Below, one piece after another: positions 39,564 to 59,676 of a stretch of DNA of 64,000 nt. How positions within the stretch are numbered: the first letter of the stretch is position 1; every line of letters begins with the position of its first letter. The stretch covers positions 1,821-65,820 of IMG/VR virus record IMGVR_UViG_3300045988_120893; one strand, 5' to 3'. Origin of the DNA: a virus. The notes beneath the pieces were generated by a model. That model was not told the DNA's origin, did no database searches, and was given only the letters and a program-made list of their open reading frames with translations. The translations under genes and the position numbers were made by a program.

Positions 39564-39578
39564 TGGTTACTCCTTTCT

Positions 39579-39764: not shown

Positions 39765-39768
39765 TCCT

Positions 39769-42722: not shown

Positions 42723-42744
42723 AGAAAGGAAATAGGTGGTAGAT

Positions 42745-42897: not shown

Positions 42898-42906
42898 CAA
42901 ACAGCA

Positions 42907-42936
42907 ACCCGCCCCGGAGGTTACGAGGGCAGAAAG
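42907..42936 (+). promoter_or_regulatory. 30-nt conserved pre-ATG element, copy 2
   Basis: ACCCGCCCCGGAGGTTACGAGGGCAGAAAG, 10 nt before ATG 42947. One mismatch to 9708-9737. Confidence 0.6.
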
Positions 42937-42946
42937 TGATGATATT

Positions 42947-43108
42947 ATGAGAGAATCAGATTATGCCATATGGAAACATGAAACACTGGATCAGATCAAA
43001 AAAGAACATCCGTACTGGACAGAGGAACAGGTACAGGAGTTCTTTGAAAAAATCGAATCAAAGTTACGGAAAAGAGGTTTCTTTGATATCGTGGATGAGT
43101 GGGTGTGA
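42947..43108 (+). CDS. Small hypothetical protein
   Basis: 53 aa, below the track cutoff. MRESDYAIWKHETLDQIKKEHPYWTEEQVQEFFEKIESKLRKRGFFDIVDEWV. Its stop overlaps the next ATG (GTGATGA). Confidence 0.45.
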   Translation: MRESDYAIWKHETLDQIKKEHPYWTEEQVQEFFEKIESKLRKRGFFDIVDEWV

Positions 43109-43401
43109 TGAATATGAGCAAAGTGAATATTGGTGAAGTATTTGTAACGTCCGGAATCAATGAAAAGATGTATAAGTCAGAGACGTTTTCCAGGGATGTT
43201 GTGTTGAGCCTTCACAAGTTCGAAAGTGCAGACTGGGGAGATACATCAGAGGATGACGCACTTTTGAATGACAGAAACGTTCAGGATGGCACTGGTGACA
43301 TTATGGGAGCATATGAAACATCAGAGGGAAGAATCTGGATCAAGACAGACCATATGCCGGACAGAACAATCACAACAGTTCTGTTCCCGGATGAATACTA
43401 A
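43108..43401 (+). CDS. Conserved mobile-element protein, '..DWGD..IWI.T...TTVLFPDEY' family
   Basis: Track ORF 43099-43401. ATG 43108 is coupled to the upstream stop. ESADWGDTSEDDALLND..GAYETSEGRIWIKTDHMPDRTITTVLFPDEY. Paralogue at 8974-9231. Confidence 0.6.
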   Translation: MNMSKVNIGEVFVTSGINEKMYKSETFSRDVVLSLHKFESADWGDTSEDDALLNDRNVQDGTGDIMGAYETSEGRIWIKTDHMPDRTITTVLFPDEY

Positions 43402-43414
43402 GGAGTGATACAGA

Positions 43415-43663
43415 ATGAAAATTGAAGTGTTCTATACTGGTGGCGGAATCTGGTTAGCAGAAACCGTCATCAATGACAAAGGCGATTATGCCGTTGTAAA
43501 TAACGAATGTCCTGAGATTCTTAGTATTTACCACAAGGCAGAAGAGAAGTATATGGAAGATGATATGTACTTAAGCAAGCCGTGGGATGAATTGAGTGAT
43601 GAAATGGCATTGACACACGCAATGATGTTCCAGGCATTGAGGAAGAAAGGTGCGTTAAGATAG
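43415..43663 (+). CDS. Hypothetical protein
   Basis: 82-aa ORF with AGGAGTG RBS. Last gene of the plus-strand cassette. Confidence 0.5.
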   Translation: MKIEVFYTGGGIWLAETVINDKGDYAVVNNECPEILSIYHKAEEKYMEDDMYLSKPWDELSDEMALTHAMMFQALRKKGALR

Positions 43664-43689
43664 GGGCGGATAACCGCTCCTGTTTTTTT
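43663..43689 (+). terminator. Intrinsic terminator of the plus-strand cassette
   Basis: GGGGCGG-ATAA-CCGCTCC (7 bp, one G.U) followed by TGTTTTTTT. Confidence 0.7.
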
Positions 43690-43693
43690 ATGC

Positions 43694-43730
43694 AAAAAGT
43701 CCCACAGCAGAATGAACCGCCGTGGGACTT
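43694..43730 (-). terminator. Intrinsic terminator after the minor head gene
   Basis: Minus strand AAGTCCCAC-16 nt-GTGGGACTTTTT. Confidence 0.55.
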
Positions 43731-43817
43731 GTCAGAAAGGAAAAAAGTAGGATGATAAATGAAAAAAACATTCATTTCACTTGTACTTTAACATATTCTG
43801 GTAAATTATTCAATACT

Positions 43818-44771
43818 TTAATCTCTTATGACCGGCGGTGTAATCTCCTCATAGATGATACTGCATCTGCAATGTGGGTGTGCCGGTGGTGTCCTCTTGA
43901 TTCCTATGTCTGTAAGTTTCGTCTTGAAGTCAAAGTCATCCATCAATCCATATCCTTCCCCATTTTCATATGCTTCCCTTGACTGCCTTTCAAGCTCATT
44001 ACAGGTATCACAGTCCCTTTTATCATCTGCCGTACACCAGATCTTCACGACTTCCCCCATAAGCCCCTGTGCCTGTGCCTGTTCGATTCCGAACAACGAA
44101 CCTTGGTTATAAGCAAATGCAAGCTCTGTCCGTGCTATCATGTAACCTCTGTACCGGCTCTGCCTTGCTGAATACCGTATAGACTTATCCAGTGCCTTCT
44201 TGTGGCTCAGACCGCTTTCTATCATCTTCTCATAATATCTCATATTCGCCATGGACTGCTGCCAGTTCAGACCTACCATTGGACGTATTGCCCTGCTTAG
44301 GTTGTCCACGTTCATTCCGGTCTGTGATGCCATCTTAATCACTTCACGCAATCCACGCACCTGTTCCCTGGTTACGTTCGTCACAAACTCCGCCGCCCTG
44401 TTTTCGTTCCATGAGATCACACCCGCCTGCATTGGGTCAAAGACAAATGGCGGCTTTTTAAATTCAAGAAGTTCATTCGCCGTTACCATTGCTTTACTCC
44501 ATAGAGGGGCAAGATGCATCTGCACAAATCGGTTATAGTCCTGCATCCAGTCATTATACACACTGATGTCAAGGTCGCCATTAAGAATTGCTTCCCTTAG
44601 TTCCTTGTATGTGATAGCTTTCCCCTGTGCGTTCCAGGTGTTCTGCAGAAGGTAAACAAGTTCCGGTTCGTTCGCATCCAGGAACGATTTCAGCTTGTCC
44701 AATACCTCAGATGCACCCGGTGTATATGCCTTATATATCGAGCGTAAGAACGCCTTAGAGTATTTTCCCAT
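43818..44771 (-). CDS. Minor head protein, Mu F / SPP1 gp7 family
   Basis: 317 aa. C-terminal signature CDTCNELE...TPPAHPHCRCSIIYE. Confidence 0.8.
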   Translation of the reverse strand: MGKYSKAFLRSIYKAYTPGASEVLDKLKSFLDANEPELVYLLQNTWNAQGKAITYKELREAILNGDLDISVYNDWMQDYNRFVQMHLAPLWSKAMVTANELLEFKKPPFVFDPMQAGVISWNENRAAEFVTNVTREQVRGLREVIKMASQTGMNVDNLSRAIRPMVGLNWQQSMANMRYYEKMIESGLSHKKALDKSIRYSARQSRYRGYMIARTELAFAYNQGSLFGIEQAQAQGLMGEVVKIWCTADDKRDCDTCNELERQSREAYENGEGYGLMDDFDFKTKLTDIGIKRTPPAHPHCRCSIIYEEITPPVIRD

Positions 44772-44789
44772 ACCATCATCCTTTCTTCG

Positions 44790-45587
44790 TTATATGTCCG
44801 TTAGCTGTTGCTCCATGTGTGTCATGTCTTCATCTGACATTTCCCTATGCTCAAAGTTGTTGAATCTGTTCGATCTTTTATTGTTCGTGTTGTTGCCATG
44901 ATTATTGTTAGAAATAGCACCAAAAACCCATTTTTTCATACACAAATAATGCGATTTTGCTTTATAACCTTTCATTTCTATGTATTCATCAAGAAAAACA
45001 ATCGCTTTTTTCATTTTTTCTTCTCCATATTCCATACACAGTTTTCCGTATTCATCATCTGTAAGGAGTACATGTTTATATTCACCATATTTATGTTTAG
45101 GTGGCTTTTTAGCCTTTGTTTTTTGCTCCTGATTTTCTGAATGCGGTATATATGTATTTAGAATATCAGTAGTAATATCATCTAGTATATTATGGGAACT
45201 TTGTTCCCTACCCCGGTGAACTTTGTTCCCTACCCCCGGTGAACTTTGTTCCCTACCCCGGTGAACTTTGTTCCCTACCAGTGAACTTTGTTCCCCACAT
45301 GGGTTCAATGCCAGGTATTCACAATATCTTATGTTGTTTACTGTCTTTTCTCTTTTTGCAAGAAGTCCCCTGTCCGTAAGGGAATTAAGGCATTTTTGCA
45401 CACTTCTTGTTGTGGAGTTCGTCCAATTAGCAAGATATTGTCTGCTTCCTGTGAACCATTGATTTTCTGTCTGGGAGAAACCGTAAATAATAGCATATAT
45501 AAGAAGTTCATTTCCTTTTAGGCACAAATCAGAAACCATGAACCCCTGAATCACTATGTAATTGTCACTTTTTATATTATTCTGCAT
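44790..45587 (-). CDS. Replisome-organizer-like protein (N-terminal wHTH, DnaD-like C-terminus) containing iterons
   Basis: Track ORF 44790-45599. ATG 45585-45587 after AGGTGGGTG. LKGNELLIYAIIYGFSQTENQWFTGSRQYLANWTNSTTRSVQKCLNSLTDRGLL and YGEYKHVLLTDDEYGKL..FLDEYIEMKGYKAKSHYLCMKKWV. Confidence 0.65.
   Translation of the reverse strand: MQNNIKSDNYIVIQGFMVSDLCLKGNELLIYAIIYGFSQTENQWFTGSRQYLANWTNSTTRSVQKCLNSLTDRGLLAKREKTVNNIRYCEYLALNPCGEQSSLVGNKVHRGREQSSPGVGNKVHRGREQSSHNILDDITTDILNTYIPHSENQEQKTKAKKPPKHKYGEYKHVLLTDDEYGKLCMEYGEEKMKKAIVFLDEYIEMKGYKAKSHYLCMKKWVFGAISNNNHGNNTNNKRSNRFNNFEHREMSDEDMTHMEQQLTDI
45196..45297. repeat. Five tandem ~22-bp iterons (candidate origin)
   Basis: GAACTTTGTTCCCTACCCCGGT at 45196, 45218, 45241, 45263 (shortened) and 45283 (partial). 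Lies inside the organizer gene, where it encodes GNKVHRGREQSS repeats. Confidence 0.8.
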
Positions 45588-45608
45588 GGCATCACCCACC
45601 TAACACCA

Positions 45609-45902
45609 TCATATTTTCGTCAGCATAATAGACAATATTTTACTAGCCATTTCCCCTAATTCCGGGAAATACCCAACAATATCAATGGCATATGCCGGTG
45701 GATATCCTAATTCATTTTCATAGATTTTCTTTGCAGCTTCAAGATTGTACTTCTCCCCGATCTTTGACAAGATCAAGTGATACAGGTATCTGTGTTCAAT
45801 TTCAAATTTTGCACATACTGCATTTATCGTATCTTTGTTTTCGGAATACCATTTTGTCCTTAAAGTAACTTTTGTTTTACTCTGGATATATTCTTTCTCC
45901 AT
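45609..45902 (-). CDS. Hypothetical protein
   Basis: 97-aa ORF upstream of the organizer-like gene. Confidence 0.5.
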   Translation of the reverse strand: MEKEYIQSKTKVTLRTKWYSENKDTINAVCAKFEIEHRYLYHLILSKIGEKYNLEAAKKIYENELGYPPAYAIDIVGYFPELGEMASKILSIMLTKI

Positions 45903-45926
45903 GTTTCTACCTCATAGTCTTTCCAT

Positions 45927-46069
45927 AAAAAACAAATCCCCCTTCTAACAGTGTTGACGGCACCGTAAAAAGAGGGATTTATTTGTGGCAAGTATTTAGT
46001 TTTCTTGTAACAAGCACCGTCAATACTTGCCACTGGTACTATATTACCATATTTTCAGAATATTTACAA
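45927..46069 (-). promoter_or_regulatory. Promoter plus structured leader ending in a terminator-like hairpin (attenuator or small RNA)
   Basis: Minus strand: TTGTAA (46069-46064), 17 nt, TGgTAATAT (46049-46041). Then a 12-bp perfect hairpin GTGGCAAGTATT..AATACTTGCCAC (46033-45985). Then AAATCCCTCTT..AGAAGGGGGATTTGTTTTTT (45980-45927). Confidence 0.5.
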
Positions 46070-46136
46070 TACAATGTTCATAATGTGAATAACTTTGTTG
46101 ATAACTTATGTATTGTACTATCCAACAACTACCCAG

Positions 46137-46640
46137 TCATCCGACAACATAGTAATCATCTGCGAGCATATCTTCTTGTGACGCGAGCCATCCTATCACA
46201 AGTGAACCGTCTGCTGCTTTCATGTCGATATGAGGGCATACATGCACCGAACCATAGGGATCTACATATGGGCCTGTCAGCTTTTCCTGAACGTCCTTTT
46301 TCAGCTGGTGGAAGTACGGATAGGAACCATCCTGCATATAGATGAACATTCCTTTTCCGTTCCATCCTTTCCTTGCGACCTTGAATCCCATCTTCATCAT
46401 TTCCAGAGCACCGCCAAAGGTCATTCCACCATTACATGAGCGGTATGCCCTTTCAAATACATCCTTCGGCGACCATGACACGTAATCATCTGAATCTACA
46501 TAGACAACCATATAACCTTCATCCTCCGGATTCTCATTCTCCGGCATCTTCCACCCACGGAACGCATTGTAATCACCCCTTGTCATTGGCTTTGCCTTAA
46601 TCAGTTTTGTCCCTATGTATTTCGCAAATTCTATTTCCAT
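46137..46640 (-). CDS. DUF2829-domain protein (Tad2-like) with extra N-terminal domain
   Basis: Track ORF 46137-46673. ATG 46638-46640 after GAAAGGAG. MTFGGALEMMKMGFKVARKGWNGKGMFIYMQ...PHIDMKAADGSLVIGWLASQEDMLADDYYVV matches the DUF2829 pattern. Confidence 0.65.
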   Translation of the reverse strand: MEIEFAKYIGTKLIKAKPMTRGDYNAFRGWKMPENENPEDEGYMVVYVDSDDYVSWSPKDVFERAYRSCNGGMTFGGALEMMKMGFKVARKGWNGKGMFIYMQDGSYPYFHQLKKDVQEKLTGPYVDPYGSVHVCPHIDMKAADGSLVIGWLASQEDMLADDYYVVG

Positions 46641-46642
46641 GG

Positions 46643-46909
46643 CTATTCTCCTTTCGCAACAAAATTCTGCCACTTCTTGTAGGCATCAAAATATGTTTCG
46701 TTCCTGTCTCCGTTATGAGTGATCTCATAGTACATGCCATCTGGTACATTCGTGCTTGCAAGTGCCTTGTGGTTATGTAATGTCTTGCAGTACCAGACGA
46801 TATACACATCATCCGGTGTGATTTCTGCCTTGTCCGTCTTTTCGCAATGGTTATTGAAATAATTTGCCACTTCATTTTTGCATAAGAACATAAATTCTTC
46901 ACTTGTCAT
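46643..46909 (-). CDS. Hypothetical protein
   Basis: 88-aa ORF downstream of the portal gene. Confidence 0.5.
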   Translation of the reverse strand: MTSEEFMFLCKNEVANYFNNHCEKTDKAEITPDDVYIVWYCKTLHNHKALASTNVPDGMYYEITHNGDRNETYFDAYKKWQNFVAKGE

Positions 46910-47023
46910 TGTATCGCTCCTTTCAAAATACTCCTGTAGCTTTCATATTCGCCCATATTTCAATTTTTATTGTTCATGTATATATTTCTTAGGCAAATGA
47001 CAAAAAACGTCTTAAATCAAAAA

Positions 47024-48451
47024 TCAGAGCCTGCCTAAACTCTTCTTTGCTTCCTCAGCTTCCTTTTCGTCTGCCAGTTCGTCAGGGTCTTTCTCTTTAT
47101 TCTCTTCCTTCGTCTGCTCCCTTTTATGCTCTTCTGACGGCTGTACCTTCACGCCATCAGACTGTCCCTGTGTTTCCCCTTTCCGTTCTTCTGTCGGTAC
47201 ACTGGTTTTCCGCTCCGGAAGGTTCCCAATCTGGCGAACATAGTCTTCCATTTCATCATCCGGTGTAAGCAGACCGCTCCCTGCCATCTGCTGTAAGAAG
47301 GCTCCAATCTTTTCTAAGTTCGCATCCTCAATATCCCCATGACGCATCTCCGGGTAGTCCGTTATGCCTTTGAAATGGTCTCCGTTAATGTCAATCAGCC
47401 TTGGGATTGCCTGATTGTTAAATACTTCACATATGACATCAAGATAGGTTCCTACTGCGAGTGCGAACATCTTCGTCTTGTTATCCACCAGGGCAAAGGA
47501 ACCGACATTCTCATGCCCGATCTGCAAGAAGTCAGCAAGAACGCTCATGGCGATCTTCGTGTCATATCGGTTGATGATGGCATTTGTGTCAAACTGTCTC
47601 CTGCTTCCGCTGGATAATAGCTGCAGTTCCCATCCATCAGGAAGAACTAACCCCTCTCTGCTGTCCCTTCTTACACCGGTAATGATGGCTTCTGCATTCG
47701 CAAGGGCCTGTTTCATATCGTCATCATCTTTGTCCCATATGTCCATGCCTTCCGGCGCTTTCAGTACCGGGAAACCTGCAAGGTCTCTTTCGATCCCGAT
47801 ACCCTCGATTTCCTGTATTCTCTTCTTGAAATACCAGTCCTTGTATGCGGTTCTTAGGATGGACCTTCCTTCCGGATTGTTCTTTCTGCTCCTGGTAACG
47901 AAATGTAGTGCCTTGTCTTTAGGTATGAATAACATTCCATAATCCGGCGGCGGCATCTGCACCATCCCTTCCAGGTCATCCGTACCCTCTTTGTACCTCC
48001 ATTCATACAATGTTTCCTGTGAACGTATAGGAAGACGTTTCCACCCGATAAGACCATCATCATATTTTGATGACAGGTCTTCGTCTTTTGTCTTTCCCAT
48101 TCTCCGTTTGTATACAATCTCATGGTAGCTCCATCCGTAAGTGATGAATGAAAGGATCTCTGACAGTGTGTCTGTCCATGTGCTTGTCATGTCATACATG
48201 CACTGTTCCACGAACTCAGCGGCTTCCTTGTCCTTCGCACTGTTCCCTGCCGGGTCAATGGTAAACTCACACTGCCGCATGAGATTTTCAACAGCAAAAA
48301 GAATCCCTCCGATGGTGGAATCGTTGTCTGCCATTTCCTTGTAGACTTCCACACCACGTATTCCCCTAAGCTCCGGAAGAAATTCTTCGTACATGATACC
48401 GTTAAGGCTTCGTCGGGAACCGATTCTACCTATTTCTCCTTTTTTTATCAC
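47024..48451 (-). CDS. Portal protein (Mu gp29 / DUF935-like)
   Basis: 475 aa, between terminase region and minor head gene. EVYKEMADNDSTIGGILFAVENLM.. and an acidic C-terminus. Confidence 0.75.
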   Translation of the reverse strand: MIKKGEIGRIGSRRSLNGIMYEEFLPELRGIRGVEVYKEMADNDSTIGGILFAVENLMRQCEFTIDPAGNSAKDKEAAEFVEQCMYDMTSTWTDTLSEILSFITYGWSYHEIVYKRRMGKTKDEDLSSKYDDGLIGWKRLPIRSQETLYEWRYKEGTDDLEGMVQMPPPDYGMLFIPKDKALHFVTRSRKNNPEGRSILRTAYKDWYFKKRIQEIEGIGIERDLAGFPVLKAPEGMDIWDKDDDDMKQALANAEAIITGVRRDSREGLVLPDGWELQLLSSGSRRQFDTNAIINRYDTKIAMSVLADFLQIGHENVGSFALVDNKTKMFALAVGTYLDVICEVFNNQAIPRLIDINGDHFKGITDYPEMRHGDIEDANLEKIGAFLQQMAGSGLLTPDDEMEDYVRQIGNLPERKTSVPTEERKGETQGQSDGVKVQPSEEHKREQTKEENKEKDPDELADEKEAEEAKKSLGRL

Positions 48452-48456
48452 TGGTT

Positions 48457-49326
48457 TTACAACTCCTTTCTTAAACGTGAAGAAATATAATCTTCAATAT
48501 CGCCTTGTTTTGTATGTCTACTGATTGTACTTCTTCCAACTCCTATCATTTTTGCCCAATCAGTAGCATTTTTAGTTACTCCATTTACAGTAATATGCAT
48601 TGTGGTTCTTCTATTATTCGCTTGTTCCTTTGATGTGGTCCATCTGCAATTACTAGGTTCGTAATTACCATCATTATTTATGCGGTCAATCGTTAGATCA
48701 TCAGCATATCCATGAGCCATTGCCCAGTCATAGAATGCTTGAAAGTCATGTATCCATTCATCACAGACAGTTATTCCACGTCCACCATAATTAGCGTAGT
48801 GTTCATCTTTTGTGTTATAGCATCTTTTTTTCATGGTTGCCCAAATGTTATAAAGTCTAGTTTTATGCAATCCATGTTTATAACTAGCACTATCTTTTCC
48901 ATATGGATAATTTATTTTCTCACGATTTGATATTGTTCCTTGTAAACAACCACAACTTTTAGTTCTACCTTTCGTTATTACCGAACTTCTTAAGCTAGTT
49001 GTTTTACCGCAATCACAAATACATTCCCAAATTGTTTCCCCTTTTTTACTTTTCCCACATGGCTTTATAACAGTCAGCATATTAAATTTTTTACCAGATA
49101 TATCTTTTGTTCTATTTTTGCCATGTGATTTTTCTATTCTTGTACACCCACAACTTTTAGTAAGATTTCTCTTTAAACTATTCGCAAATACTTCTGTATA
49201 ATTGCCACAATCACACTTACAAAGCCATTTTGCGTGTCCATTTTTTGAAGATTCGCATTCAGACACAACAACAAGCCTACCATACCTTTTACCTATCAAA
49301 TTTTCTTTCTTCATAATATAACCCAT
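48457..49326 (-). CDS. HNH/AP2-like endonuclease-type DNA-binding protein with duplicated Cys modules
   Basis: 289 aa. Two LxGKxFGxLxV..W.C.CDCG...SCGC units, YNIWATMKKRCYN..YGGRGITVCDEW, IDRINNDGNYEPSNCRWTTSKEQANNRR, C-terminal HTH. AT-rich. Confidence 0.65.
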   Translation of the reverse strand: MGYIMKKENLIGKRYGRLVVVSECESSKNGHAKWLCKCDCGNYTEVFANSLKRNLTKSCGCTRIEKSHGKNRTKDISGKKFNMLTVIKPCGKSKKGETIWECICDCGKTTSLRSSVITKGRTKSCGCLQGTISNREKINYPYGKDSASYKHGLHKTRLYNIWATMKKRCYNTKDEHYANYGGRGITVCDEWIHDFQAFYDWAMAHGYADDLTIDRINNDGNYEPSNCRWTTSKEQANNRRTTMHITVNGVTKNATDWAKMIGVGRSTISRHTKQGDIEDYISSRLRKEL

Positions 49327-49371
49327 TCCTTTCTAAATGGATTATATTACAATAATTTCCATTTCTCAAGT

Positions 49372-51927
49372 TTAATGATTCCAATATGATTTTTTCTTAT
49401 TTCCTACTTCCGTTGGTGGAGCGGAATGTGTATTCATTTTTTCAAGCTCGTCATATCCGTTTGCACTGGCATCTGCCATATCTTTAAACTTCCTGTCTGG
49501 AAACCCGTCCATTTGAGCTAAATATGCTTGCGTCCACGGTGCATTAAGAACATCTACATTTCCTTTTTCTGAACCCTTTATTCCAATCCATTGAGCGGAC
49601 AAAGGCTCTGCTCTTGTCTCTTTGCTGCCGCTCTCCCTTACCATACTTACACTAAATCCAGATAGCATTTTTATATATTGTTCACTTTGGTCTTTACCAC
49701 TTTGCCCAGGATCTTGCGACATTCTTATTTTAATTTTTCTCCCAAATGAAGCTTTGTCTGCTTTTGCAGTATTAAGGACAGTCTGGCGCACATCACTTGA
49801 GTTCATTCTGCGATTAATTACATCACCAATAACAATTCTTCCGTTCTTGCGTTTACCGATAAGAACACCAGCTGTATAGGCTGGACCATCCTCAGGATTA
49901 TTGTTCTTTTTGTCCTCAGTACCGGCCAAATCCCATGCACGTACCCATCGAATAACATCATCTGGCAATTCATCAATGATTGTAGCCTTATTTCTAGGGA
50001 AGTACATACCGGCAGCAGGCCTAATCTTCCAGTTCCCGCCTAAAAGCCGTTCCTGCTCTACAAGAGGAAGTGATTTCAAGTTGGCAAGGTAAGACGGGTC
50101 ATTCCTCATGAGTATAGCGTTGTCGGAGAGCATGGACAGTATGAATGTGGCACTCTTCGGCGTGATAAGGTCAACATATTCTGTTCCGTTCCATCTGTAA
50201 AACTGTTTTGTTTCTGTGCATACATACAGAACACCGCTTTCACCATGTTCATGTATATACAGATTTCCTGTCTCACTGTCCTTTATGAAAAGTTCGTCCG
50301 GGTGCCTGTGCTTCTTATTTACTTCTCTTATCTCGCCATCAAACTGACGCTTCAAGAGCTCCATCCGGTTATCTCCCCAGATTACTTCTCCATTTATGCG
50401 GATAAACCATCGTATCTTCCCAGACCGCTCCGGTATCGCATAACCCGTGTCCTGGTTAATCCACCATGAGATAAATTCTGCAACCCAGCTGTCAGGGTCA
50501 GGGTTGGTTGTGGCTCTGATATATCCGGGTACACCGGAATCAGAACGGTTTCGGGAGAACATATACCAGAAAACATCCTCATTGAAATGTGTCAGCTCGT
50601 CAAAACAATTTTTATTGACTAACCCACTTTCAGTGATATAATGATTAGTGGTAGAAACTGTTAAATCAATAACCCATCTTTTACCTAAAGGAGTGATTTT
50701 ACATGAATGATATTCAATATCAACCCCTTCCGCAATCTGTTCTTCTCCCGTATACGGGTGGACATACCGTAATTTATGGTGGATATGTTTATGAACTTTG
50801 CCCTGACCATCCAAAAGCGAATCCTTTCGGTTTTGTACCACAACACCGTCTAGTATTAGAACGTCACCTTGGACGTTATCTCCTTTCAAGTGAACAGGTA
50901 CATCACATTGATATGGACCCCCTGAACAATGACCTCTCAAACCTTCAAATTCTTTCACGTTCTGAACATCTTGCGATACATCGTAAATTTGAACGTGAGC
51001 AGCGTTATCCTCCTTTAACTCATGATATTGTTTCTGATGCTCTTGCAGATGGTGGTCTAAAAGCCGCTGCAAAGGCTCTCGGTTGTTCGACTGAAACGAT
51101 TCGCAATAACTTCCCTTATCTTGTTGCGCCTTACAAAAGGAAATCTCCTGCAAACCTTGATCTTGATAGTTGGGTTGACAAAATAAAACCTCTTGCTGCT
51201 GATAAAAATATTGGTTATCGTGAGGCTGTTGCTGTTCTTGGCATATCTGCAAGGAGCATTCAACGTGTTTGTGAACGTCATAACATTGAGTGGGTGAAGA
51301 AATCAAAGGTTGGTGAGATTCATACAAAGTACACATATCGGAATAGGAAACCCAGCCACAAGAAGTAAGGATTTTATGCGTTGTTGAATGAATCTGCTTT
51401 TCTCCATATTCATTTTCAATTTCAACACAATCTTCTAATCTTCTATTACCTATTGCTGTAACAGGCATAGGTCCTTGTAAAGTTTCTACCATATCCCCTA
51501 TCTGTATATCTGATAGGGGTTTTTTAGTGCCATCTGCCATCCGTATTAAAGTAGATTCTTCACAACATATTAGTGGAATCTGTGAGCCTTGCCAGCCCAA
51601 ACAATCCTCGTACCGCTCCAAGTGTCCGAAAGATACCTTTGCACCGCTCGGAAAAACAAATTGAGGGTTCGGGGTCTTTTTCGGTGTGGCTTGAAACTGT
51701 GGAAGAAAACCCATGGCAGAATCCCAAAGTCCACCGTTGGTAAATATCTGCGTGTTATTCCTACGGAAGATAACAGAATTGAATCGGGGGTTTCCGCTAT
51801 GCCGTAACTGTTCCATGAGCAGAGCATAAGTTTTCCCTCCACCGGCGGCTCCACCGAATATTACAATATCTGCGATTGACGATAAGAATTGTTCTTGTCT
51901 CGGCTGTGGCTTGATTACAGTTGACAT
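49372..51927 (-). CDS. terL: Terminase large subunit interrupted by an intein
   Basis: 851 aa. Walker A GGAAGGGKT (aa 25-33). IPLIC|C...intein...KN|CFDELTHF (Walker B-like). C-terminal nuclease half (RAWDLAGTE, SQDPGQSGK). Confidence 0.85.
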   Translation of the reverse strand: MSTVIKPQPRQEQFLSSIADIVIFGGAAGGGKTYALLMEQLRHSGNPRFNSVIFRRNNTQIFTNGGLWDSAMGFLPQFQATPKKTPNPQFVFPSGAKVSFGHLERYEDCLGWQGSQIPLICCEESTLIRMADGTKKPLSDIQIGDMVETLQGPMPVTAIGNRRLEDCVEIENEYGEKQIHSTTHKILTSCGWVSYSDMCTLYESHQPLISSPTQCYDVHKHVECSLQICQEQQQPHDNQYFYQQQEVLFCQPNYQDQGLQEISFCKAQQDKGSYCESFQSNNREPLQRLLDHHLQEHQKQYHELKEDNAAHVQIYDVSQDVQNVKEFEGLRGHCSGGPYQCDVPVHLKGDNVQGDVLILDGVVVQNRKDSLLDGQGKVHKHIHHKLRYVHPYTGEEQIAEGVDIEYHSCKITPLGKRWVIDLTVSTTNHYITESGLVNKNCFDELTHFNEDVFWYMFSRNRSDSGVPGYIRATTNPDPDSWVAEFISWWINQDTGYAIPERSGKIRWFIRINGEVIWGDNRMELLKRQFDGEIREVNKKHRHPDELFIKDSETGNLYIHEHGESGVLYVCTETKQFYRWNGTEYVDLITPKSATFILSMLSDNAILMRNDPSYLANLKSLPLVEQERLLGGNWKIRPAAGMYFPRNKATIIDELPDDVIRWVRAWDLAGTEDKKNNNPEDGPAYTAGVLIGKRKNGRIVIGDVINRRMNSSDVRQTVLNTAKADKASFGRKIKIRMSQDPGQSGKDQSEQYIKMLSGFSVSMVRESGSKETRAEPLSAQWIGIKGSEKGNVDVLNAPWTQAYLAQMDGFPDRKFKDMADASANGYDELEKMNTHSAPPTEVGNKKKSYWNH
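50615..50642 (+). promoter_or_regulatory. Near-consensus promoter for the antisense HNH gene
   Basis: TTGACT (50615-50620), 16 nt, TGaTATAAT (50634-50642). AAAGGAG lies 9 nt before ATG 50703. Embedded antisense in the intein block F/G codons. Confidence 0.6.
50703..51368 (+). CDS. HNH homing endonuclease encoded antisense inside the terL intein
   Basis: 221 aa. GGYVYELCPDHPKANPFGFVPQHRLVLERHLGRYLLSSEQVHHIDMDPLNNDLSNLQILSRSEHLAIH (HNH_3-like). Two HTH-like modules (LKAAAKALGCSTETIRNNF; YREAVAVLGISARSIQRVCERH). Confidence 0.8.
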   Translation: MNDIQYQPLPQSVLLPYTGGHTVIYGGYVYELCPDHPKANPFGFVPQHRLVLERHLGRYLLSSEQVHHIDMDPLNNDLSNLQILSRSEHLAIHRKFEREQRYPPLTHDIVSDALADGGLKAAAKALGCSTETIRNNFPYLVAPYKRKSPANLDLDSWVDKIKPLAADKNIGYREAVAVLGISARSIQRVCERHNIEWVKKSKVGEIHTKYTYRNRKPSHKK

Positions 51928-51964
51928 GGCATCACCCCCTTTTACATCCTGTTTTTATCATGGT

Positions 51965-52498
51965 CTAAACTTCCAAATCGTCAAAATCATCTTCATCCTG
52001 CCTGTGGTTCTCCGGAAGATAAATCTGGACAGCGTTCATTGCCTGTCCGCCATCCCGGTTCTCAATAACCTCTCCGACATCTCCACGGCTGATACGTTCC
52101 AGCTTGCTTGCAACATCAACCATCTTCGAAACGTCAGATGCCTTGATATCTTCCACCGGAATCTTATTCAATGCCTGTGCAGCCTTCACTATCATTGCGG
52201 ATGCCACTGTTGCATGGTTCTTCCGCATTTTTTTTATGTCTTTGATCTGCTGCAATCTGTTCAGCCTGTCCACCTCTGCATCCCAGGCTGTCACACGTTC
52301 TACCCAGTGGTTCTTTTTGCTCCAGATTCCAAGATTAGGCTTTGTCTTACCAAGAGCATCCGCTACCTTCTGGATGGATCTCTCTGCACCCATATCCCTG
52401 TATAAAGCAAATGCTTCCCATTGCTTAGGTGTTTCCCCCGGCTGCCGCTCCCATGGTTTCAAATCTTCTGGTGCTTCCTGTGTTTTTTTTCTTGCCAT
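51965..52498 (-). CDS. terS: Terminase small subunit
   Basis: 177 aa. HTH-like RSIQKVADALGKTKPNLGIWSKKNHW. Immediately upstream of terL. Confidence 0.7.
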   Translation of the reverse strand: MARKKTQEAPEDLKPWERQPGETPKQWEAFALYRDMGAERSIQKVADALGKTKPNLGIWSKKNHWVERVTAWDAEVDRLNRLQQIKDIKKMRKNHATVASAMIVKAAQALNKIPVEDIKASDVSKMVDVASKLERISRGDVGEVIENRDGGQAMNAVQIYLPENHRQDEDDFDDLEV

Positions 52499-52502
52499 GC
52501 TA

Positions 52503-53132
52503 TCACTCCTTTCCTATCCTGATAAGTTCGTTTCTTTTTAATCGTGTGACGGTAAATGATGGTTCCCATGTGGCAAACCGTTCATCCTGTGGTATTCTGT
52601 CCGCTTCTCCACGGTCTATAAGGTCCACTGAATCACAAAGCATCTGTACCCCCATCGGGAATATCTCTTTCCATAAATCGCTATAACTCCATGACCGATC
52701 TATGAATACCGGTTTCTGCATGAGAATGTCTCCACCATCAACTTTGTTATTAAGCCAGTATACGGATGCCCCGGTGATAGCGTCACCCATTGCAACCGCC
52801 CACCTTACTGCATCCTGCCCCCGGTGTCGGGGAAGCAAGGAAGGATGGAAACCTATCCCACCATACCTTGCCTTTTCAATTACTTTTTCGGATATAAACC
52901 AGTGAGAATGTGCGGCAACGATTAAGTCTGTGTTATCCGGTATATCATTTGACGTTAGCTTATCCATATCGGATATAACCGGGATACCTAATTTCATTGC
53001 TGGACCTATGACTTTATCAAAATATTTTTCTTGTGGAGGTGGGGCAACACCTACGATGGTATGCCCACGATCATATAATTCTTTCAAAACGACTTTCCCA
53101 AAACTACGCTGGCCGCATAGGAATATATTCAA
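52503..53132 (-). CDS. Formyltransferase-family enzyme (Fmt/PurN/ArnA N-domain-like)
   Basis: 209 aa. LIVAAHSHWFIS, GGIGFHPSLLPRHRGQDAVRWAV, VDGGDILMQ correspond to the N/H/D catalytic regions of Formyl_trans_N. Confidence 0.7.
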   Translation of the reverse strand: MNIFLCGQRSFGKVVLKELYDRGHTIVGVAPPPQEKYFDKVIGPAMKLGIPVISDMDKLTSNDIPDNTDLIVAAHSHWFISEKVIEKARYGGIGFHPSLLPRHRGQDAVRWAVAMGDAITGASVYWLNNKVDGGDILMQKPVFIDRSWSYSDLWKEIFPMGVQMLCDSVDLIDRGEADRIPQDERFATWEPSFTVTRLKRNELIRIGKE

Positions 53133-54286
53133 CTAATATCACCATACTTTCCGATATATTTGAATCCTTGTACAGCTCGGAAGTGACCTCCATAACCAAC
53201 ACCATTCATCTTTGAGCCTTTTTTACGGCGGCTTTTCTGAATGCTCATTGCACTTTTCTTTTTGTTGTCACCATAAAGCATTGCACTTGTTTGTATCCAA
53301 TTCTTGCTACGTCTTAAAGCCATGCATAGCTGCGGATGTGAAGTATGGAAGAATGTCGCATATTTCCGGTTGCAACGTCCATTTCCGTCCATGTGATAGC
53401 TGCATACCCATTCAAGGAAACGGAATCCTACACCTGCACCCTGCCACTCAGGCATGGTTACAAGCCTTGTGGCACGATACGCATTAGCTGTGAACATAGG
53501 TGCAACGGCAACATGGCAAGCAAGCTCACCATCAACAGTACCTACAAAATATTCTGCTGCTGGCGGCATAGGTAAATCTAAATAGTAATGCGGTTTAAAA
53601 AACTTCCAGTAACTTGAGTCCGTCTTGAAAATTTCAAGCCGTATTTTCGGTCTTTGCCTGGGATTCCCCCTTTCAAAACGCTTTGAAGCGGTGTCAAATA
53701 CCCAATCCGGCTGTACCCAATCTAATATGTCATAGTGAGGTGTCAGCAATACCACTTTTCCATTTGGATTCGTTCTTCTCCATGCCTTTTGAAATGCCTG
53801 CGAACCGATTTTCGCAATCTGGCGGTCTACAACGGAAGTGAACTCGTCAACAACCGCTTTTTCCGGCTTTTCGCAAATCAGCCTTGCAAGTCCCGCCCGG
53901 AACTGCTCACCATTAGAAAGTACTCTGAACGTCCTTAGCCATGCTGGAACATCACCAAGACCTACATTAGCCAATGCCCCCGTTACCTCGTTAAAATCAC
54001 CATCAGGAGCGATTTCGTCAATGATTGGTTTGTTTGGATGCCATCCCTTTGTGTAGTCGTGTATAAGGTTCTCACCATCAAATATTGTTTTCCCTATGGA
54101 AGTCTTTCCGCTCCCAGATGGCCCGACTACAACACCAATCTGCCAATCACCGGATAAGTCCATGGTGGCTTCAAGGTCAAAGTTACATCCGTTTTCGGCA
54201 TTGAAAAGGCTTTTTACCCTTGCCGCCCTGTAACTGTTAAAATCATCAACACGGTTATGTACTTCAATCTTTGTCAGTTTATTCAT
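53129..54286 (-). CDS. ABC-type ATPase fused to a GNAT-like acyltransferase domain
   Basis: 385 aa. Walker A GPSGSGKTS, signature-like LSNGEQFR, Walker B AVVDEFTS. C-terminal half has MPEWQGAGVGFRFLEW (GNAT motif-A-like). Confidence 0.6.
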   Translation of the reverse strand: MNKLTKIEVHNRVDDFNSYRAARVKSLFNAENGCNFDLEATMDLSGDWQIGVVVGPSGSGKTSIGKTIFDGENLIHDYTKGWHPNKPIIDEIAPDGDFNEVTGALANVGLGDVPAWLRTFRVLSNGEQFRAGLARLICEKPEKAVVDEFTSVVDRQIAKIGSQAFQKAWRRTNPNGKVVLLTPHYDILDWVQPDWVFDTASKRFERGNPRQRPKIRLEIFKTDSSYWKFFKPHYYLDLPMPPAAEYFVGTVDGELACHVAVAPMFTANAYRATRLVTMPEWQGAGVGFRFLEWVCSYHMDGNGRCNRKYATFFHTSHPQLCMALRRSKNWIQTSAMLYGDNKKKSAMSIQKSRRKKGSKMNGVGYGGHFRAVQGFKYIGKYGDIS

Positions 54287-55032
54287 GTAGTCACAACCTT
54301 ACATTCGTAACCATCTGAATAGAGACGTTCATATACTTCTTTCTGTTCCGCTTCGTCCTTGCATATTACAATAACTCCATACTGCTCTTTATAGTTGAAA
54401 TTTGTTGTGGTTGTTATCTGAGGATCGTCTGTAGATGGAAATGTAGACGGTTCTGTGGTTATTTCTGTGGGTTGTTCTGTTTGTGTTTCTGTGGTATCTT
54501 CTGTGCCTGTGCTTTCCGGCTCTGTGTGTTTCTTCCCATGGTCAGTATCGCTTGAAAAACTTTCAATGACCCTGAGTGCTTCATCATCATTGATTAAATC
54601 GTCTATCTCATGGTACTCATATCCTGTCAGCATAACGTCAATGTCTGTGTTGTTGATGTCATTCAGGATATCAATGAGCAAATCTTCATCAATACTGCTC
54701 AGTTCTGAAATGCGGTTATCAGCTACCAGATCCGCCCATTCTTCCGCTTCGTTTGCATAATCCTGATAATCTACAGGCACATGAGTTTCTTTCAGAAGTA
54801 TTGCGGCTTGCAACCGCCCATGTCCGGACACGACAAAACCGCTCCTCTTACTTACGGTAATCGGTTTTCTCCATCCCTGAGCCTTAATGACCTGTGCCAG
54901 TATCTCAATCTGACGTTCCGGATGCATATTCGGGTTACGTGGGTTTGGTATTACTTTCATAATTTCTACGATTTCGTCATGTGAGCAGTAGACCGGAATA
55001 TCTCCAATCATTGCTTTGCATTGAATACTCAA
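54283..55032 (-). CDS. ParB N-terminal-domain (ParB-like nuclease) protein without methylase domain
   Basis: 249 aa. NPRNPNMHPERQIEILAQVIKAQGWRKPITVSKRSGFVVSGHGRLQAA. T/E/P linker. C-terminal YGVIVICKDEAEQKEVYERLYSDGYECKVV module. Confidence 0.7.
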   Translation of the reverse strand: MSIQCKAMIGDIPVYCSHDEIVEIMKVIPNPRNPNMHPERQIEILAQVIKAQGWRKPITVSKRSGFVVSGHGRLQAAILLKETHVPVDYQDYANEAEEWADLVADNRISELSSIDEDLLIDILNDINNTDIDVMLTGYEYHEIDDLINDDEALRVIESFSSDTDHGKKHTEPESTGTEDTTETQTEQPTEITTEPSTFPSTDDPQITTTTNFNYKEQYGVIVICKDEAEQKEVYERLYSDGYECKVVTT

Positions 55033-55044
55033 TATTCATCCGTC

Positions 55045-55263
55045 CTATTCTTCACTAGTACCATCACTAGGTTGTTGTTCTACGATTCCATATATCCTGA
55101 TTTCATCTTTTCCGGATTCCGTTTTTTCTGCAGGGACAAGCTCTATCTTTCCTACATTCTGAACGCTTTCTGACAGCTGTATTTTTTCTATAAGCTGGTA
55201 TCCTGTATAACCAGTAGCCTTATTCGTGTAATTCCTTGCCGCTGCAAGTGTAAGAAGGTCCAT
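55045..55263 (-). CDS. Small hypothetical protein
   Basis: 72-aa ORF between the two ParB-like genes. Confidence 0.4.
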   Translation of the reverse strand: MDLLTLAAARNYTNKATGYTGYQLIEKIQLSESVQNVGKIELVPAEKTESGKDEIRIYGIVEQQPSDGTSEE

Positions 55264-55277
55264 GGTTCCTCACATCC

Positions 55278-55484
55278 TTACTGTTCATACCAGATTTCGT
55301 CATCCTCGCTGTAACAGAAGATTTTCCTTGTGTCCATCTCATAAAACTCAGATGCGTTTCCTATTTTTCTTCCATCAAATTCACGTATAGGCTTTTCATC
55401 CGTGCTCTTTCCGTAAAGTTCAAGGCATTTCCTGTTCACGTATCTTCCGTATCTTCTCAATGTCACCATGGCATCAAGGGTCAC
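55278..55484 (-). CDS. Small hypothetical protein
   Basis: 68-aa ORF between the two ParB-like genes. Confidence 0.4.
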   Translation of the reverse strand: MTLDAMVTLRRYGRYVNRKCLELYGKSTDEKPIREFDGRKIGNASEFYEMDTRKIFCYSEDDEIWYEQ

Positions 55485-55488
55485 ATCC

Positions 55489-56265
55489 TTATTTTTTTAT
55501 GGGTCTCGGCTTTCTTAGTTTGAATATATCGCTTTCCATGTCATTTTCCCTCGCCCATGCAGTAATCAGTTCCATGTATCCGTATTCTTTTTGTTCCCTT
55601 ACACACGTACATCCCATATTCCCAGTCTCATAGACATAATGGCTTATGATGCTGTCACAAATAGGGTCTTCTTCACCAACAATAAATCTATGCTCTCCAA
55701 GGTTCCAGATATCTCCGGCTTTAGAAAACATGGATGGTACTTTTATTTCTTCCGGAGTTTCCTCTTCTTCCTCTCCTTCAAGATCAGAAAGTATATTGTC
55801 TATATCTTCTGAATCATATCCGGTAAGTGCAAGCATATCTTCATTCTCGAATGAATCTATCATCTCTGATAGAATCTGATTATCAATTTCAGAAAGTTCC
55901 GCAAGCCGGTTGTCAGCAATAAGGTCAGCGTATTCTTCGTCCTGGCTGGAATATTCCTGATAGTCCACCGGAACATTCGACCATCCGGCAAGTTTGGCCG
56001 CCTGCAATCTTCCATGTCCTTTGACGATACATCCGCTCCTGTTCGAAACAGTGATAGGCTGTCTCCATCCTGTTTTCTCTATGATGCTTTTGAGAAGTTC
56101 GATCTGTTCTTGTGGGTGTTGGTTTGGGTTGAGTGGGTTCGGTTTGAGGTTCTTTGTAGGCACGATGTCGTCGTGCGAACAGAAGATAGGGATACCATCA
56201 TTTGATACTGCTTTTGGCTCTGCTGAGGTTCTGTAATCAATATCTTCTATTTTTTTACCATCCAT
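55489..56265 (-). CDS. ParB N-terminal-domain protein with a degenerate methylase start
   Basis: 258 aa. NPLNPNQHPQEQIELLKSIIEKTGWRQPITVSNRSGCIVKGHGRLQAA. Then GDIWNLGEHRFIVGE resembles the start of ParB-fused N6/N4 methylases, but no DPPY-type motif follows. Confidence 0.65.
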   Translation of the reverse strand: MDGKKIEDIDYRTSAEPKAVSNDGIPIFCSHDDIVPTKNLKPNPLNPNQHPQEQIELLKSIIEKTGWRQPITVSNRSGCIVKGHGRLQAAKLAGWSNVPVDYQEYSSQDEEYADLIADNRLAELSEIDNQILSEMIDSFENEDMLALTGYDSEDIDNILSDLEGEEEEETPEEIKVPSMFSKAGDIWNLGEHRFIVGEEDPICDSIISHYVYETGNMGCTCVREQKEYGYMELITAWARENDMESDIFKLRKPRPIKK

Positions 56266-56296
56266 AATTCCTCCAATCTAATCAAATTAAAAGTTA

Positions 56297-56317
56297 CATA
56301 AAACGCATAAAACGCAT
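56297..56317. repeat. 9-bp tandem repeat in the promoter region of the ParB/packaging operon
   Basis: CATAAAACG CATAAAACG CAT (minus strand ATGCGTTTTATGCGTTTTATG), downstream of TGtTATAAT in the 56266-56430 intergenic region. Confidence 0.5.
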
Positions 56318-56430
56318 TTTTTCAAGTAAATTATAACATTATTTCAGAATAATTCTACTATTAGTATTGAATTTTGCAAAAAAAGAGACGTACTTAACAA
56401 AATGTCAGCACACCCCTTTCTTATTCATAA

Positions 56431-56826
56431 CTAGTCCTCACTTTCTTTGTATGGTTCTGGTAGCGCTTTCCATGCGACAACTTCATCATAATCCTCATAA
56501 TCTTCAAAATAGTTACCATCGTCTTTATAAAATGTTGTTTTATCAACATTTCCATACTTTGAAGTAATCAATACTTCTTGTCCATCATCAGGCAAAGGAC
56601 ATTCATATATAAAAAAATATTCTGAATAGTATTCTTCCTCTTCTTCTGTCATTGGCCTTGTTTTCACAGGAATCCAACCACTGCTCCCGACATTTGTGTC
56701 TGGAGCAAATTCTTCTGCTACTTCCTGAACGATTTTCTTTATATCATAAAGTTCAATTACCACTTCATCACTTATGCCAAATTCTTTTTCCAACCTCTCT
56801 AAAATCTTCTCAAATGCTTTGTTCAT
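56431..56826 (-). CDS. DUF551-like protein
   Basis: 131 aa. GWIPVKTRPMTEEE...VVAWKALPEPYKE matches the WI.v..rlP...aWmPLPepY pattern. Confidence 0.5.
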   Translation of the reverse strand: MNKAFEKILERLEKEFGISDEVVIELYDIKKIVQEVAEEFAPDTNVGSSGWIPVKTRPMTEEEEEYYSEYFFIYECPLPDDGQEVLITSKYGNVDKTTFYKDDGNYFEDYEDYDEVVAWKALPEPYKESED

Positions 56827-57098
56827 TCTGATTCTCCTATCATCTCAAATCTCATTTGCTGTTTCACATCAGGATATTTTTCACGATCTACCTCTGATAG
56901 AAACATACTTAATGGCCTGCACCATACTAAATTAGGTTTATAGAAACTCTTGTAAATCACCATCGGTTCTTCTGTTTCGCTGTGTACTGCAATACCAGTA
57001 ACGACATATATTCCACCTTTAAAATGTCTATACCGAAAACCGACAATTTCATCTTTAATGTAATCAACTTGATCTTGCACTTTCATTCGTTTGTTCAT
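56823..57098 (-). CDS. DUF1653-like protein
   Basis: 91 aa. YRHFKGGIYVVTGIAVHSETEEPMVIYKSFY...WCRPLSMFLSEV. Confidence 0.6.
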   Translation of the reverse strand: MNKRMKVQDQVDYIKDEIVGFRYRHFKGGIYVVTGIAVHSETEEPMVIYKSFYKPNLVWCRPLSMFLSEVDREKYPDVKQQMRFEMIGESE

Positions 57099-57114
57099 TA
57101 TTCTTCACTCTCCT

Positions 57115-57432
57115 TTACATCTCATTTGTTCGTCTCTCGTAACTTGCATAGTCATCTAAACTACGGAAATTCATTCTCATATGACTATTTTCCCAATGTG
57201 GATGTTTCCAAAATTTCTTCTCGCATGATGCTGAGCAAAATCTTGTACGCATATCTCCACTACCATCCTCTGTTACTACTGTCCTTCCGCATTGTGAACA
57301 ATTAAAAGTTATTGACGGATATAATAATGTGACTTTATGTGTTTTCCTGAATATATCTCCGCACTTTCTGCAACAGTACTTTTGTGTTACTGAAAGTTGA
57401 GTAAATTCTTTACCACAATTTAAACATTGCAT
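57115..57432 (-). CDS. Zinc-ribbon protein, hypothetical
   Basis: 105 aa. CLNCG..CCRKCG..CSQCG..CSASC. Confidence 0.5.
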   Translation of the reverse strand: MQCLNCGKEFTQLSVTQKYCCRKCGDIFRKTHKVTLLYPSITFNCSQCGRTVVTEDGSGDMRTRFCSASCEKKFWKHPHWENSHMRMNFRSLDDYASYERRTNEM

Positions 57433-58307
57433 TCATTCATCTCCTTATATACTTCTCTTATTACATCATCAAAAAACATAGGAAATCCCTTTTTATTCAT
57501 TATTGCTGTAACTTCCGTCTGTTCTAACGACCATATCATCATCACTTCTTTGCATTGTTCGATACTTCTTTTTAAATTATTTTGTGTTAGCATTATTGAG
57601 CATATATAATGTAATCCGTCCATATATATTTGCCACTGTTCATCGTCCGACAGTGGCTTTTTTGCCTTACTAGAATAATCATTTATCAGACTTTCCCAAA
57701 ATCGATCAAAGTTACTATCCACTAACTCATTTTTTCGCATATATGTGGCATGATAATCTTCTTGCAACGATATTATTAAATTTTTTAATTTTATTTGATG
57801 CATATTGTCACATGCAAAAACAAAGTTAGCTATCTTAATCCACGCTTTACGCTGTAATAAAATATCTCCCCACGCATCTTCATATATAAATTTTTTACTC
57901 CTGCTCTTACCAATATATTTGTTGCATAGAGTATTTAAGTCCGCACAAAAGTCCGTATCATTATTTGTCATGGATGGCGAAAAATAATCCATATGTTTTA
58001 TATAACAATCATTATCAAGTATAAAATACTGACATTTTATTTTTTTTTCTCCAAACGCAACACTCCCAAAAGGTTTTATTCCTTTTAGAATTTTTAGTTT
58101 TTGTAATTTAACACCACTTTCTGCGACTTTTAAAACTTCATATTTTGTCCCAAAGTCTCCTATCTTATTTGGAAGATTATCTAGGATTTTGAAGTTTTCA
58201 ACAAGTAGTCTCTTGACTGTGTTCATATCCAAACCCAATGCTTTTAATTTCTCTGTTTTTTCAACAATTTCGTCAATTAGTTTTTCTTCGTCACTCATTA
58301 TCTCCAC
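57420..58307 (-). CDS. Hypothetical protein (AT-rich islet)
   Basis: 295-aa ORF, visibly AT-richer than its flanks. No motif recognised. Confidence 0.55.
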   Translation of the reverse strand: MEIMSDEEKLIDEIVEKTEKLKALGLDMNTVKRLLVENFKILDNLPNKIGDFGTKYEVLKVAESGVKLQKLKILKGIKPFGSVAFGEKKIKCQYFILDNDCYIKHMDYFSPSMTNNDTDFCADLNTLCNKYIGKSRSKKFIYEDAWGDILLQRKAWIKIANFVFACDNMHQIKLKNLIISLQEDYHATYMRKNELVDSNFDRFWESLINDYSSKAKKPLSDDEQWQIYMDGLHYICSIMLTQNNLKRSIEQCKEVMMIWSLEQTEVTAIMNKKGFPMFFDDVIREVYKEMNECNV

Positions 58308-59672: not shown

Positions 59673-59676
59673 TCTT

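Follow-up and report, generated by a model that had tools for sequence, protein, structure and literature searches.

The origin of the endonucleases found in inteins is a long-standing question, on which the locus described here, the large terminase subunit gene (terL) of an uncultured phage, bears directly. The gene lies in a stretch of 64,000 nucleotides (nt) (positions 1,821 to 65,820 of IMG/VR virus record IMGVR_UViG_3300045988_120893), which is referred to below as the window. Its open reading frame (ORF; 49372..51927, minus strand) encodes 851 amino acids, and the product matches the Pfam families Terminase_6N and Terminase_6C as well as the PHROG family phrog_979 (expect value (E) 3e-138). 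The frame contains an insert of 320 codons (50608..51567, minus strand) that resembles an intein, and the opposite strand of this insert harbors an ORF for an HNH endonuclease. This raises the question whether the two genes belong to a single element. Judged from sequence comparisons and structure models, they probably do: terL appears to carry a composite mobile element made up of a class-1-type intein and a complete antisense gene for an HNH_3 homing-type endonuclease.

Boundaries and splicing domain of the intein

Relatives were collected by using TerL as a query against a large protein collection. This yielded many TerL proteins of ~480-530 amino acids without the insert and a set of ~770-850 amino acids with it. 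Alignment with the intein-less proteins places the insert between ..GSQIPLI and CFDELTHF. The N-extein (51568..51927, minus strand) thus comprises TerL residues 1-120, and the C-extein (49372..50607, minus strand) extends from CFDELTHF, the Walker B motif, through the nuclease domain. The same boundaries are given by a natural polymorphism. The terL flanks of an intein-bearing relative (L003) and an intein-less one (L094) are 93-95% identical, and the two alleles are set apart by one block of 960 nt, located in L003 between ..CCGCTTATC and TGCTTTGAC.. and equivalent to 50608..51567 of the window. These are the coordinates that an earlier, sequence-only reading of the window had assigned to the insert. 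The block starts with TGC TGT GAA GAA TCG (C-C-E-E-S) and ends with AAC AAA AAT (N-K-N). This shows that the intein starts at the first Cys of the 'CC' (C-C-E-E-S-T-L-I, which fits block A). Its C-terminal residue is Asn320, and the next Cys belongs to the Walker B region of the host protein, so that both the insertion point and the N-terminal and +1 Cys residues named in the earlier reading are borne out. The insert is in frame, a multiple of three in length, joined without scars and has no equivalent in close homologues that lack the intein. Residues C1, S61, H64 and N320 are invariant in both intein alignments, and the +1 Cys is nearly so (at least 90% of 16 sequences).

The fold of the insert was analyzed with an AlphaFold2 model, scored by the predicted local distance difference test (pLDDT). 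Residues 1-80 (51328..51567, minus strand), which contain block A (CCEESTLI) and block B (S-T-T-H), form a beta-rich Hint N-part with means of 80-95 over 10-residue blocks. The Hint C-part, residues 235-320 (50608..50865, minus strand), includes LRYVHPYTGEEQ, TPLGKRWVIDLTV and NHYITESGLVNKN; its block means are 86-90 for residues ~260-320 and lower and mixed for residues 235-259, with values below 50 at 250-256. The intervening residues 81-234 (50866..51327, minus strand) have a pLDDT below 50, and the middle of the insert, read in the terL frame, has no Pfam match, in agreement with the earlier statement that it contains no endonuclease motif. These ~154 residues are predicted to be disordered. 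In a Foldseek search the intein model matched gp41-1 (E 3e-5), with DnaB and Prp8 inteins also among the matches. The template modelling scores of NpuDnaB and Mtu RecA are 0.73-0.75 (normalised to the target), and both halves of the model are spanned. Short tblastn matches connect the N-part with the N-parts of phage UvsX and TerL inteins. These results support the view that the insert is a class-1-type intein, whose Hint domain would be assembled from its first ~80 and last ~85 residues.

The terL gene is essential. Because the host gene is essential and its frame is kept open across the insert, we infer that the intein is removed by protein splicing. Translation of terL through the antisense strand of the HNH gene would yield the 851-residue precursor with a disordered linker of ~154 residues. 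The Hint domain would excise itself via Cys1, Asn320 and Cys+1 in spite of this linker, and splicing would restore ..QIPLI/CFDELTHF.. (junction QIPLICFDELTHF) in the Walker B region of a TerL protein of 531 amino acids.

The antisense HNH gene and the constraint on both strands

The ORF on the plus strand (50703..51368; 221 amino acids) is located entirely inside terL. Its product matches HNH_3 with 40.4 bits (Pfam cut-off 24.8; E 2.3e-10) and PHROG families of HNH endonucleases at E 1e-16. The HNH core (residues ~45-95) is followed by two helical modules resembling helix-turn-helix (HTH) domains (~107-192), and residues H67, H68, N80 and H93 are invariant in 56 HNH homologues. The assignment of an HNH core in the sequence-only reading is therefore confirmed by the Pfam match, whereas that of two HTH modules is weaker: matches to HTH_28, HTH_23 and NUMOD1 stay below the Pfam cut-offs, and the modules are helical in the AlphaFold2 model. 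In this model, with a pLDDT of 87, they are confidently placed, and its best fold match is the bipartite HTH domain of Tc3 (probability 0.92, E 0.03). The only solved structure reached by the sequence profile of the family is I-HmuI (E 0.11), which ranks fourth in the fold search.

The gene was also thought to fill precisely the position of the endonuclease domain in an intein. The position is correct, but the fit is not precise. At the 3' end, the last ~13 codons overlap residues 68-80 of the Hint N-part. At the 5' end, the first ~55 codons together with the 5' untranslated region and the promoter overlap the structured Hint C-part. A palindrome of 12 bp, CCCGTATACGGG (50747..50758), encodes P-Y-T-G on both strands and is read as LPYTGG in the HNH protein and as HPYTGE in the intein. 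The central 10 bp occur nowhere else in the window, and 11 related loci have them at the same position.

To assess the constraints on the two strands, the DNA of 11 intein-bearing relatives was compared, whose extein identity to the window ranges from 89% down to 50%. In all 12 sequences, including the window, the antisense ORF is intact (218-288 codons), has the same relative phase and is positioned between blocks B and F. Synonymous codons were then shuffled within each HNH gene (5000 shuffles). The shuffled genes are expected to produce 6.7-11.3 stops in the terL frame, whereas none was observed in any of the genes, and at most 1 of 5000 shuffles per gene left this frame open (P <= 2e-4 per gene). 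For the HNH gene of the window 10.4 stops were expected and none is present; not one of the 5000 shuffles was open. The other two antisense frames contain 8 and 16 stops in the window and 4-27 across the 12 sequences. The terL frame is thus open beyond chance, as had been argued earlier from a simple codon count.

The relative phase of the genes makes it possible to distinguish which frame is selected. Codon position 1 of the HNH gene lies opposite position 1 of the host gene, HNH position 3 opposite terL position 2, and HNH position 2 opposite terL position 3. The last two pairings provide a clean test. HNH position 3 accounts for 49% of all pairwise differences, and HNH position 2, which is terL position 3, for 23%. 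At the amino acid level, the mean identity of the HNH frame is 0.58, compared with 0.31 for the sense frame; the sense-frame filler reaches only 0.23-0.24 among the relatives, and the HNH proteins of the most divergent pairs among the 12 sequences are ~37-43% identical. The accumulation of substitutions at HNH position 3 and the higher identity of the HNH frame indicate that the HNH protein is under purifying selection. The terL frame across the middle of the insert appears to be merely kept free of stops, which makes the locus an unusually clean case of dual-strand coding, with one strand selected for protein sequence and the other only to stay open. The ~55 HNH codons at the 5' end, situated under the Hint C-part, have fewer third-position differences (0.46 per codon) than the rest of the gene (0.61-0.63), consistent with a second constraint in this part.

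Signals for separate expression of the HNH gene were found where the sequence-only reading had placed them. A scan identified a predicted sigma-70-type promoter (50615..50642, plus strand) of the form TTGACT-16-TG-n-TATAAT, in which 11 of 12 positions are matched and the TG extension is present. It consists of a -35 element TTGACT (50615-50620), a spacer of 16 nt, TG (50634-50635) and a -10 element TATAAT (50637-50642). The promoter is antisense to the LVN and NHYIT codons of the intein, with the -10 element opposite block F (N-H-Y-I-T). A predicted Shine-Dalgarno (SD) sequence, AAAGGAG (50687..50693, plus strand), with GGAG at 50690..50693, precedes the ATG by 9 nt and is antisense to the codons for Thr412 and Pro413. 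Among the 12 close relatives, TGnTATAAT is kept in 11, and 11 have GGAG(T) at a distance of 7-10 nt before the start. The ACT and CCT codons opposite the SD sequence are fixed in 10 of 11 TerL genes. This fixation stands out from the codon usage around it. In the alignment of 11 distinct TerL genes there are 106 invariant columns with degenerate residues, where the commonest codon on average accounts for 56% of the sequences. A single codon in at least 90% of the sequences occurs in nine of these columns, and five of the nine are T412 and P413 (SD) and N428, H429 and Y430 (-10 element), whereas the third positions of the neighbouring invariant residues D443, E444, T446, H447 and F448 vary freely. 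This indicates conservation at the nucleotide level beyond the need of the protein. The data support the prediction that the HNH gene possesses its own extended -10 promoter and ribosome-binding site, written into conserved codons of the intein.

Within 3388..63838 of the window, nearly all ORFs of at least 150 amino acids are encoded on the minus strand, and the antisense HNH gene is among the very few on the plus strand. Its transcription would therefore run head-on against that of the rest of the phage genome. In 11 loci fetched via the TerL protein, gene callers list only terL and not the antisense HNH ORF. Since callers miss one of two overlapping genes, such elements are probably under-counted in phage genomes.

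Distribution, mobility and alternative explanations

A profile built from the 56 HNH homologues led to 80 IMG/VR loci. In the 52 further distinct loci examined besides the window, both frames are intact and have the same relative phase. In each of the 35 loci with a full-length HNH match, a long antisense ORF (617-1459 amino acids) covers the HNH ORF. Nineteen of the covering ORFs were tested against family models and 18 of them are TerL; the exception, L069, has no match. The detailed anatomy of the GC-rich loci L072, L076, L079 and L085 was not relied on. Among 47 more distant HNH_3 loci that match in the core only and served as a control, every antisense frame is interrupted by stops in 34, the pattern expected of free-standing genes, and 10 are open in the same phase. 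That the common phase is a physical necessity is not supported; reasoning from codons, not computed, suggests that stops could be avoided in the other phases too.

Five of the 10 open control loci (L039, L049, L063, L065 and L066) form a second lineage, with HNH ORFs at about 2500-3360 on the plus strand and host ORFs on the minus strand. These loci contain a canonical intein above the Pfam Intein_splicing threshold, which is inserted into the TerL P-loop (GGxG/C...). The HTH modules of their antisense HNH_3 proteins are N-terminal to the HNH core, the reverse of the domain order in the window. In a further locus, L041, a TerL-like open frame of 1459 amino acids (953-5329, minus strand) has Hint-type Pfam matches at about residues 437, 874 and 1343; several inteins are probably present in it, including one with the antisense HNH gene. 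Antisense HNH_3 genes of opposite domain order are associated with at least two TerL inteins that are unrelated to each other, one at the Walker B site and one at the P-loop site. It is a tentative idea, and one we consider rather doubtful, that antisense HNH genes represent a recurrent, modular route by which free-standing endonuclease genes colonise inteins. If the arrangement is adaptive, it would uncouple the timing and dose of the nuclease from the late and abundant TerL. A promoter for the host polymerase would fire early, head-on to late transcription, and the antisense transcript might tune terL expression.

The distribution of the element points to mobility. In an extein tree of the window and 120 TerL proteins, intein-bearing alleles are scattered among intein-less ones; P0003, for instance, falls within a clade of alleles that lack the intein, and the sister of P0005, P0114, is likewise intein-less. 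Comparison of the window with L002 gives identities of 61% for the exteins, 91% for the Hint parts and 85% for HNH. Patchy distribution and an intein that is more conserved than its host gene indicate horizontal spread. The intein-less close relatives L094, P0006 and P0010 have no HNH gene at this position. At the same Walker B site, mini-inteins of ~145-165 residues without the HNH gene occur in P0110, P0115 and P0070. They retain the first ~78 and the last ~52-70 residues, including LRYxHPYTGxEQ, so the HPYT of the palindrome is still present. Their C-part starts from LRYxHPYTG, or somewhat earlier in P0115, and the first part of the Hint C-part is absent in P0110. The stretch facing the HNH core has left a remnant, ILQLNDVVIRNQADL, in P0115, and this points to loss of the nuclease gene by deletion.

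Based on these results, the composite element is proposed to function as follows. Host RNA polymerase would transcribe the HNH gene from the strand opposite to terL, against the gene flow of the phage. The enzyme of 221 amino acids, with an HNH core and two HTH-like modules as in I-HmuI, would cut or nick the intein-less terL of co-infecting relatives near the Walker B codons, and recombinational repair would copy the intein and the HNH gene into the cut allele. The sequence-only reading had already suggested a mini-intein combined with an HNH gene of free-standing type under dual-strand constraint. The 52 further loci, the purifying selection on the HNH frame, the conserved -10 and SD elements and the existence of mini-inteins are all in line with it, as is the finding that the sense frame is open in all homologous inteins collected. 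A missing HNH match or disrupted ORFs in relatives had been named as grounds for abandoning this idea; the HNH_3 match is above the cut-off and the ORFs of the relatives are intact.

Several observations weigh against this interpretation. Block B reads S61-T-T-H64, that is SxxH instead of the usual TxxH, and the penultimate residue of the intein is Lys where His is usual; SxxH in block B and a penultimate residue other than His are tolerated in some inteins. Pfam models for inteins and Hint domains match only the N-terminus of the insert and remain below their cut-offs, and Hom_end_hint gives a weak match (E 0.023) from residue 121. A whole-chain fold search with the HNH model returned no significant match, probably because the protein is a flexible multi-domain chain. 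A broader and more divergent set of loci shows the -10 element relaxed to TATA[A/G]T, with the exact TGnTATAAT in only 17 of 36 sequences and an SD-like motif in 27 of 42. Transfer need not account for all of the higher conservation of the intein relative to the extein, since part of it could stem from the constraint of coding on both strands. In addition, every relative comes from metagenomes, and none of the cultured phages in the GenBank phage set has the element. Near-identical DNA was not found in this set, a tblastn search of it with the intein yielded only short N-terminal Hint matches to other inteins, and a scan of one genome per species with the HNH profile detected no relative.

Among the alternatives, the one that best survives accepts a functional HNH protein that is not a homing enzyme, and instead serves the phage, for example by acting with the terminase as a nuclease in DNA packaging, by attacking competing phages, or by regulating terL through its antisense transcript. 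HNH genes adjoining terminase genes are described as common in phages (PMC3592412), purifying selection on the HNH gene is clear, and antisense effects on terL are physically possible with head-on transcription. However, the gene is gained and lost together with the intein, as seen in the three intein-less close relatives, and the role in packaging was down-weighted because of this co-variation. The combination of HNH_3 with HTH modules, with I-HmuI as the nearest solved relative, belongs to a family of homing enzymes, and both the patchy distribution and the greater conservation of the insert compared with the host gene speak for mobility. A role other than homing is therefore considered unlikely.

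It is much less probable still that the HNH ORF is a decaying relic of a former invasion that has simply not yet disappeared, the terL frame being the only one maintained. The nuclease region can indeed be lost, as shown by the mini-inteins and the partly deleted version at the same site. Nevertheless, all 42 distinct HNH ORFs of the lineage at the Walker B site are intact and share one relative phase in spite of their divergence, substitutions follow the codon pattern of the HNH gene, its catalytic residues are invariant, and the start-site signals are conserved at synonymous sites. The codon-position pattern in particular largely refutes a relic.

Antisense endonuclease genes occur in some group I introns. 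The least credible explanation, that terL is a pseudogene or that such a group I or group II intron is removed at the RNA level without protein splicing, draws on the Pfam intein scores below the cut-offs, but the insert is in frame, a multiple of three and contrary to expectation free of stops in all relatives. Its first residue is Cys and its last Asn, with a Cys as the next residue; its ends are modelled as a Hint domain, and the contigs that bear it otherwise look like complete phage genomes. Introns were rejected as candidates because the insert is in frame and kept open and because no Rfam family, including group I and II introns, matched the insert region at E <= 1.

In the window, terL is part of a packaging module together with terS (51965..52498, minus strand) and the portal gene (47024..48451, minus strand). 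Between terL and the portal gene lies an ORF of 289 amino acids (48457..49326, minus strand), which matches the PHROG family phrog_374 'HNH endonuclease' at E 6e-97 and has no Pfam match. In L001-L003, L011 and L094 the portal gene comes directly after terL. It looks like a second, free-standing gene of the homing type that was inserted at the terL locus. The packaging module has two unusual neighbours upstream of terS, a formyltransferase-like ORF immediately next to it (52503..53132, minus strand; Pfam Formyl_trans_N, E 1e-20) and an ORF with a weak ABC-ATPase match (53129..54286, minus strand).

Comparison with known systems

At one insertion site the relatives of the window display a series of states: a bare mini-intein, an intein with an antisense HNH gene and its own signals, and a partly deleted version. 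Together with in-frame HNH_3 inteins elsewhere, these natural states support the view that free-standing endonuclease genes invade splicing elements, and the locus provides a system for testing it.

The sequence-only reading knew of no intein with an antisense endonuclease gene. This is contradicted by the literature. Antisense LAGLIDADG genes are reported for the Synechocystis DnaX and Chloroflexus SpoVR-like inteins (Gorbalenya 1998; Gogarten et al. 2002, as cited in bioRxiv 10.1101/2025.01.02.630785). Gosselin, Arsenault and Gogarten (bioRxiv 10.1101/2025.01.02.630785) described actinophage inteins with antisense LAGLIDADG, antisense VSR-like and out-of-frame EndoVII-like nucleases, with terminase large subunits among their hosts, and proposed that they originated from free-standing endonuclease genes invading inteins. 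HNH nucleases appear there in frame only. The element of the window shares with these inteins an ORF on the opposite strand between the splicing blocks, an open sense frame without recognisable fold, TerL as a host protein, and a patchy distribution that suggests continued transfer. It differs in its nuclease, HNH_3 with HTH modules instead of LAGLIDADG or VSR-like, and in its hosts, which are uncultured and apparently non-actinobacterial phages. An HNH_3 nuclease is also associated with a Hint domain in the dCTP deaminase intein of cyanophage CL131, for which splicing was demonstrated experimentally (PMC6293099). There, HintN and HNH_3 are in frame and the nuclease is a domain of the intein polypeptide, whereas in the window it is a separate protein from the opposite strand and the in-frame translation is predicted to be disordered filler.

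Splicing element and endonuclease are separate genes that travel together also in the 'fractured genes', where a free-standing endonuclease gene separates the two halves of a split intein (Dassa et al. 2009, as cited in later work), and in the collaborative homing of free-standing endonucleases with introns. In contrast to the former, terL of the window is unbroken, and its frame runs through the antisense strand of the HNH gene to give a single contiguous precursor. In I-HmuI (PDB 1u3e), helical DNA-binding modules likewise follow an HNH beta-beta-alpha-metal core; this enzyme is encoded in the sense direction in a phage group I intron, and its match to the HNH family is borderline at the E value given above.

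No description of an intein with an HNH gene on its opposite strand emerged from a full-text literature search, although most subscription journals lie outside its coverage and absence is not proof. With its HNH_3 nuclease, the element falls outside the described LAGLIDADG and VSR-like antisense subtypes. What appears to be new is only that the nuclease is of the HNH type, that the embedded promoter is conserved and that the element is widespread in metagenomes. Beyond the known antisense inteins, the locus of the window adds quantitative evidence for selection on both strands, a promoter and an SD sequence embedded in conserved intein codons, and an unexpected abundance and recurrence of such elements in uncultured phages.

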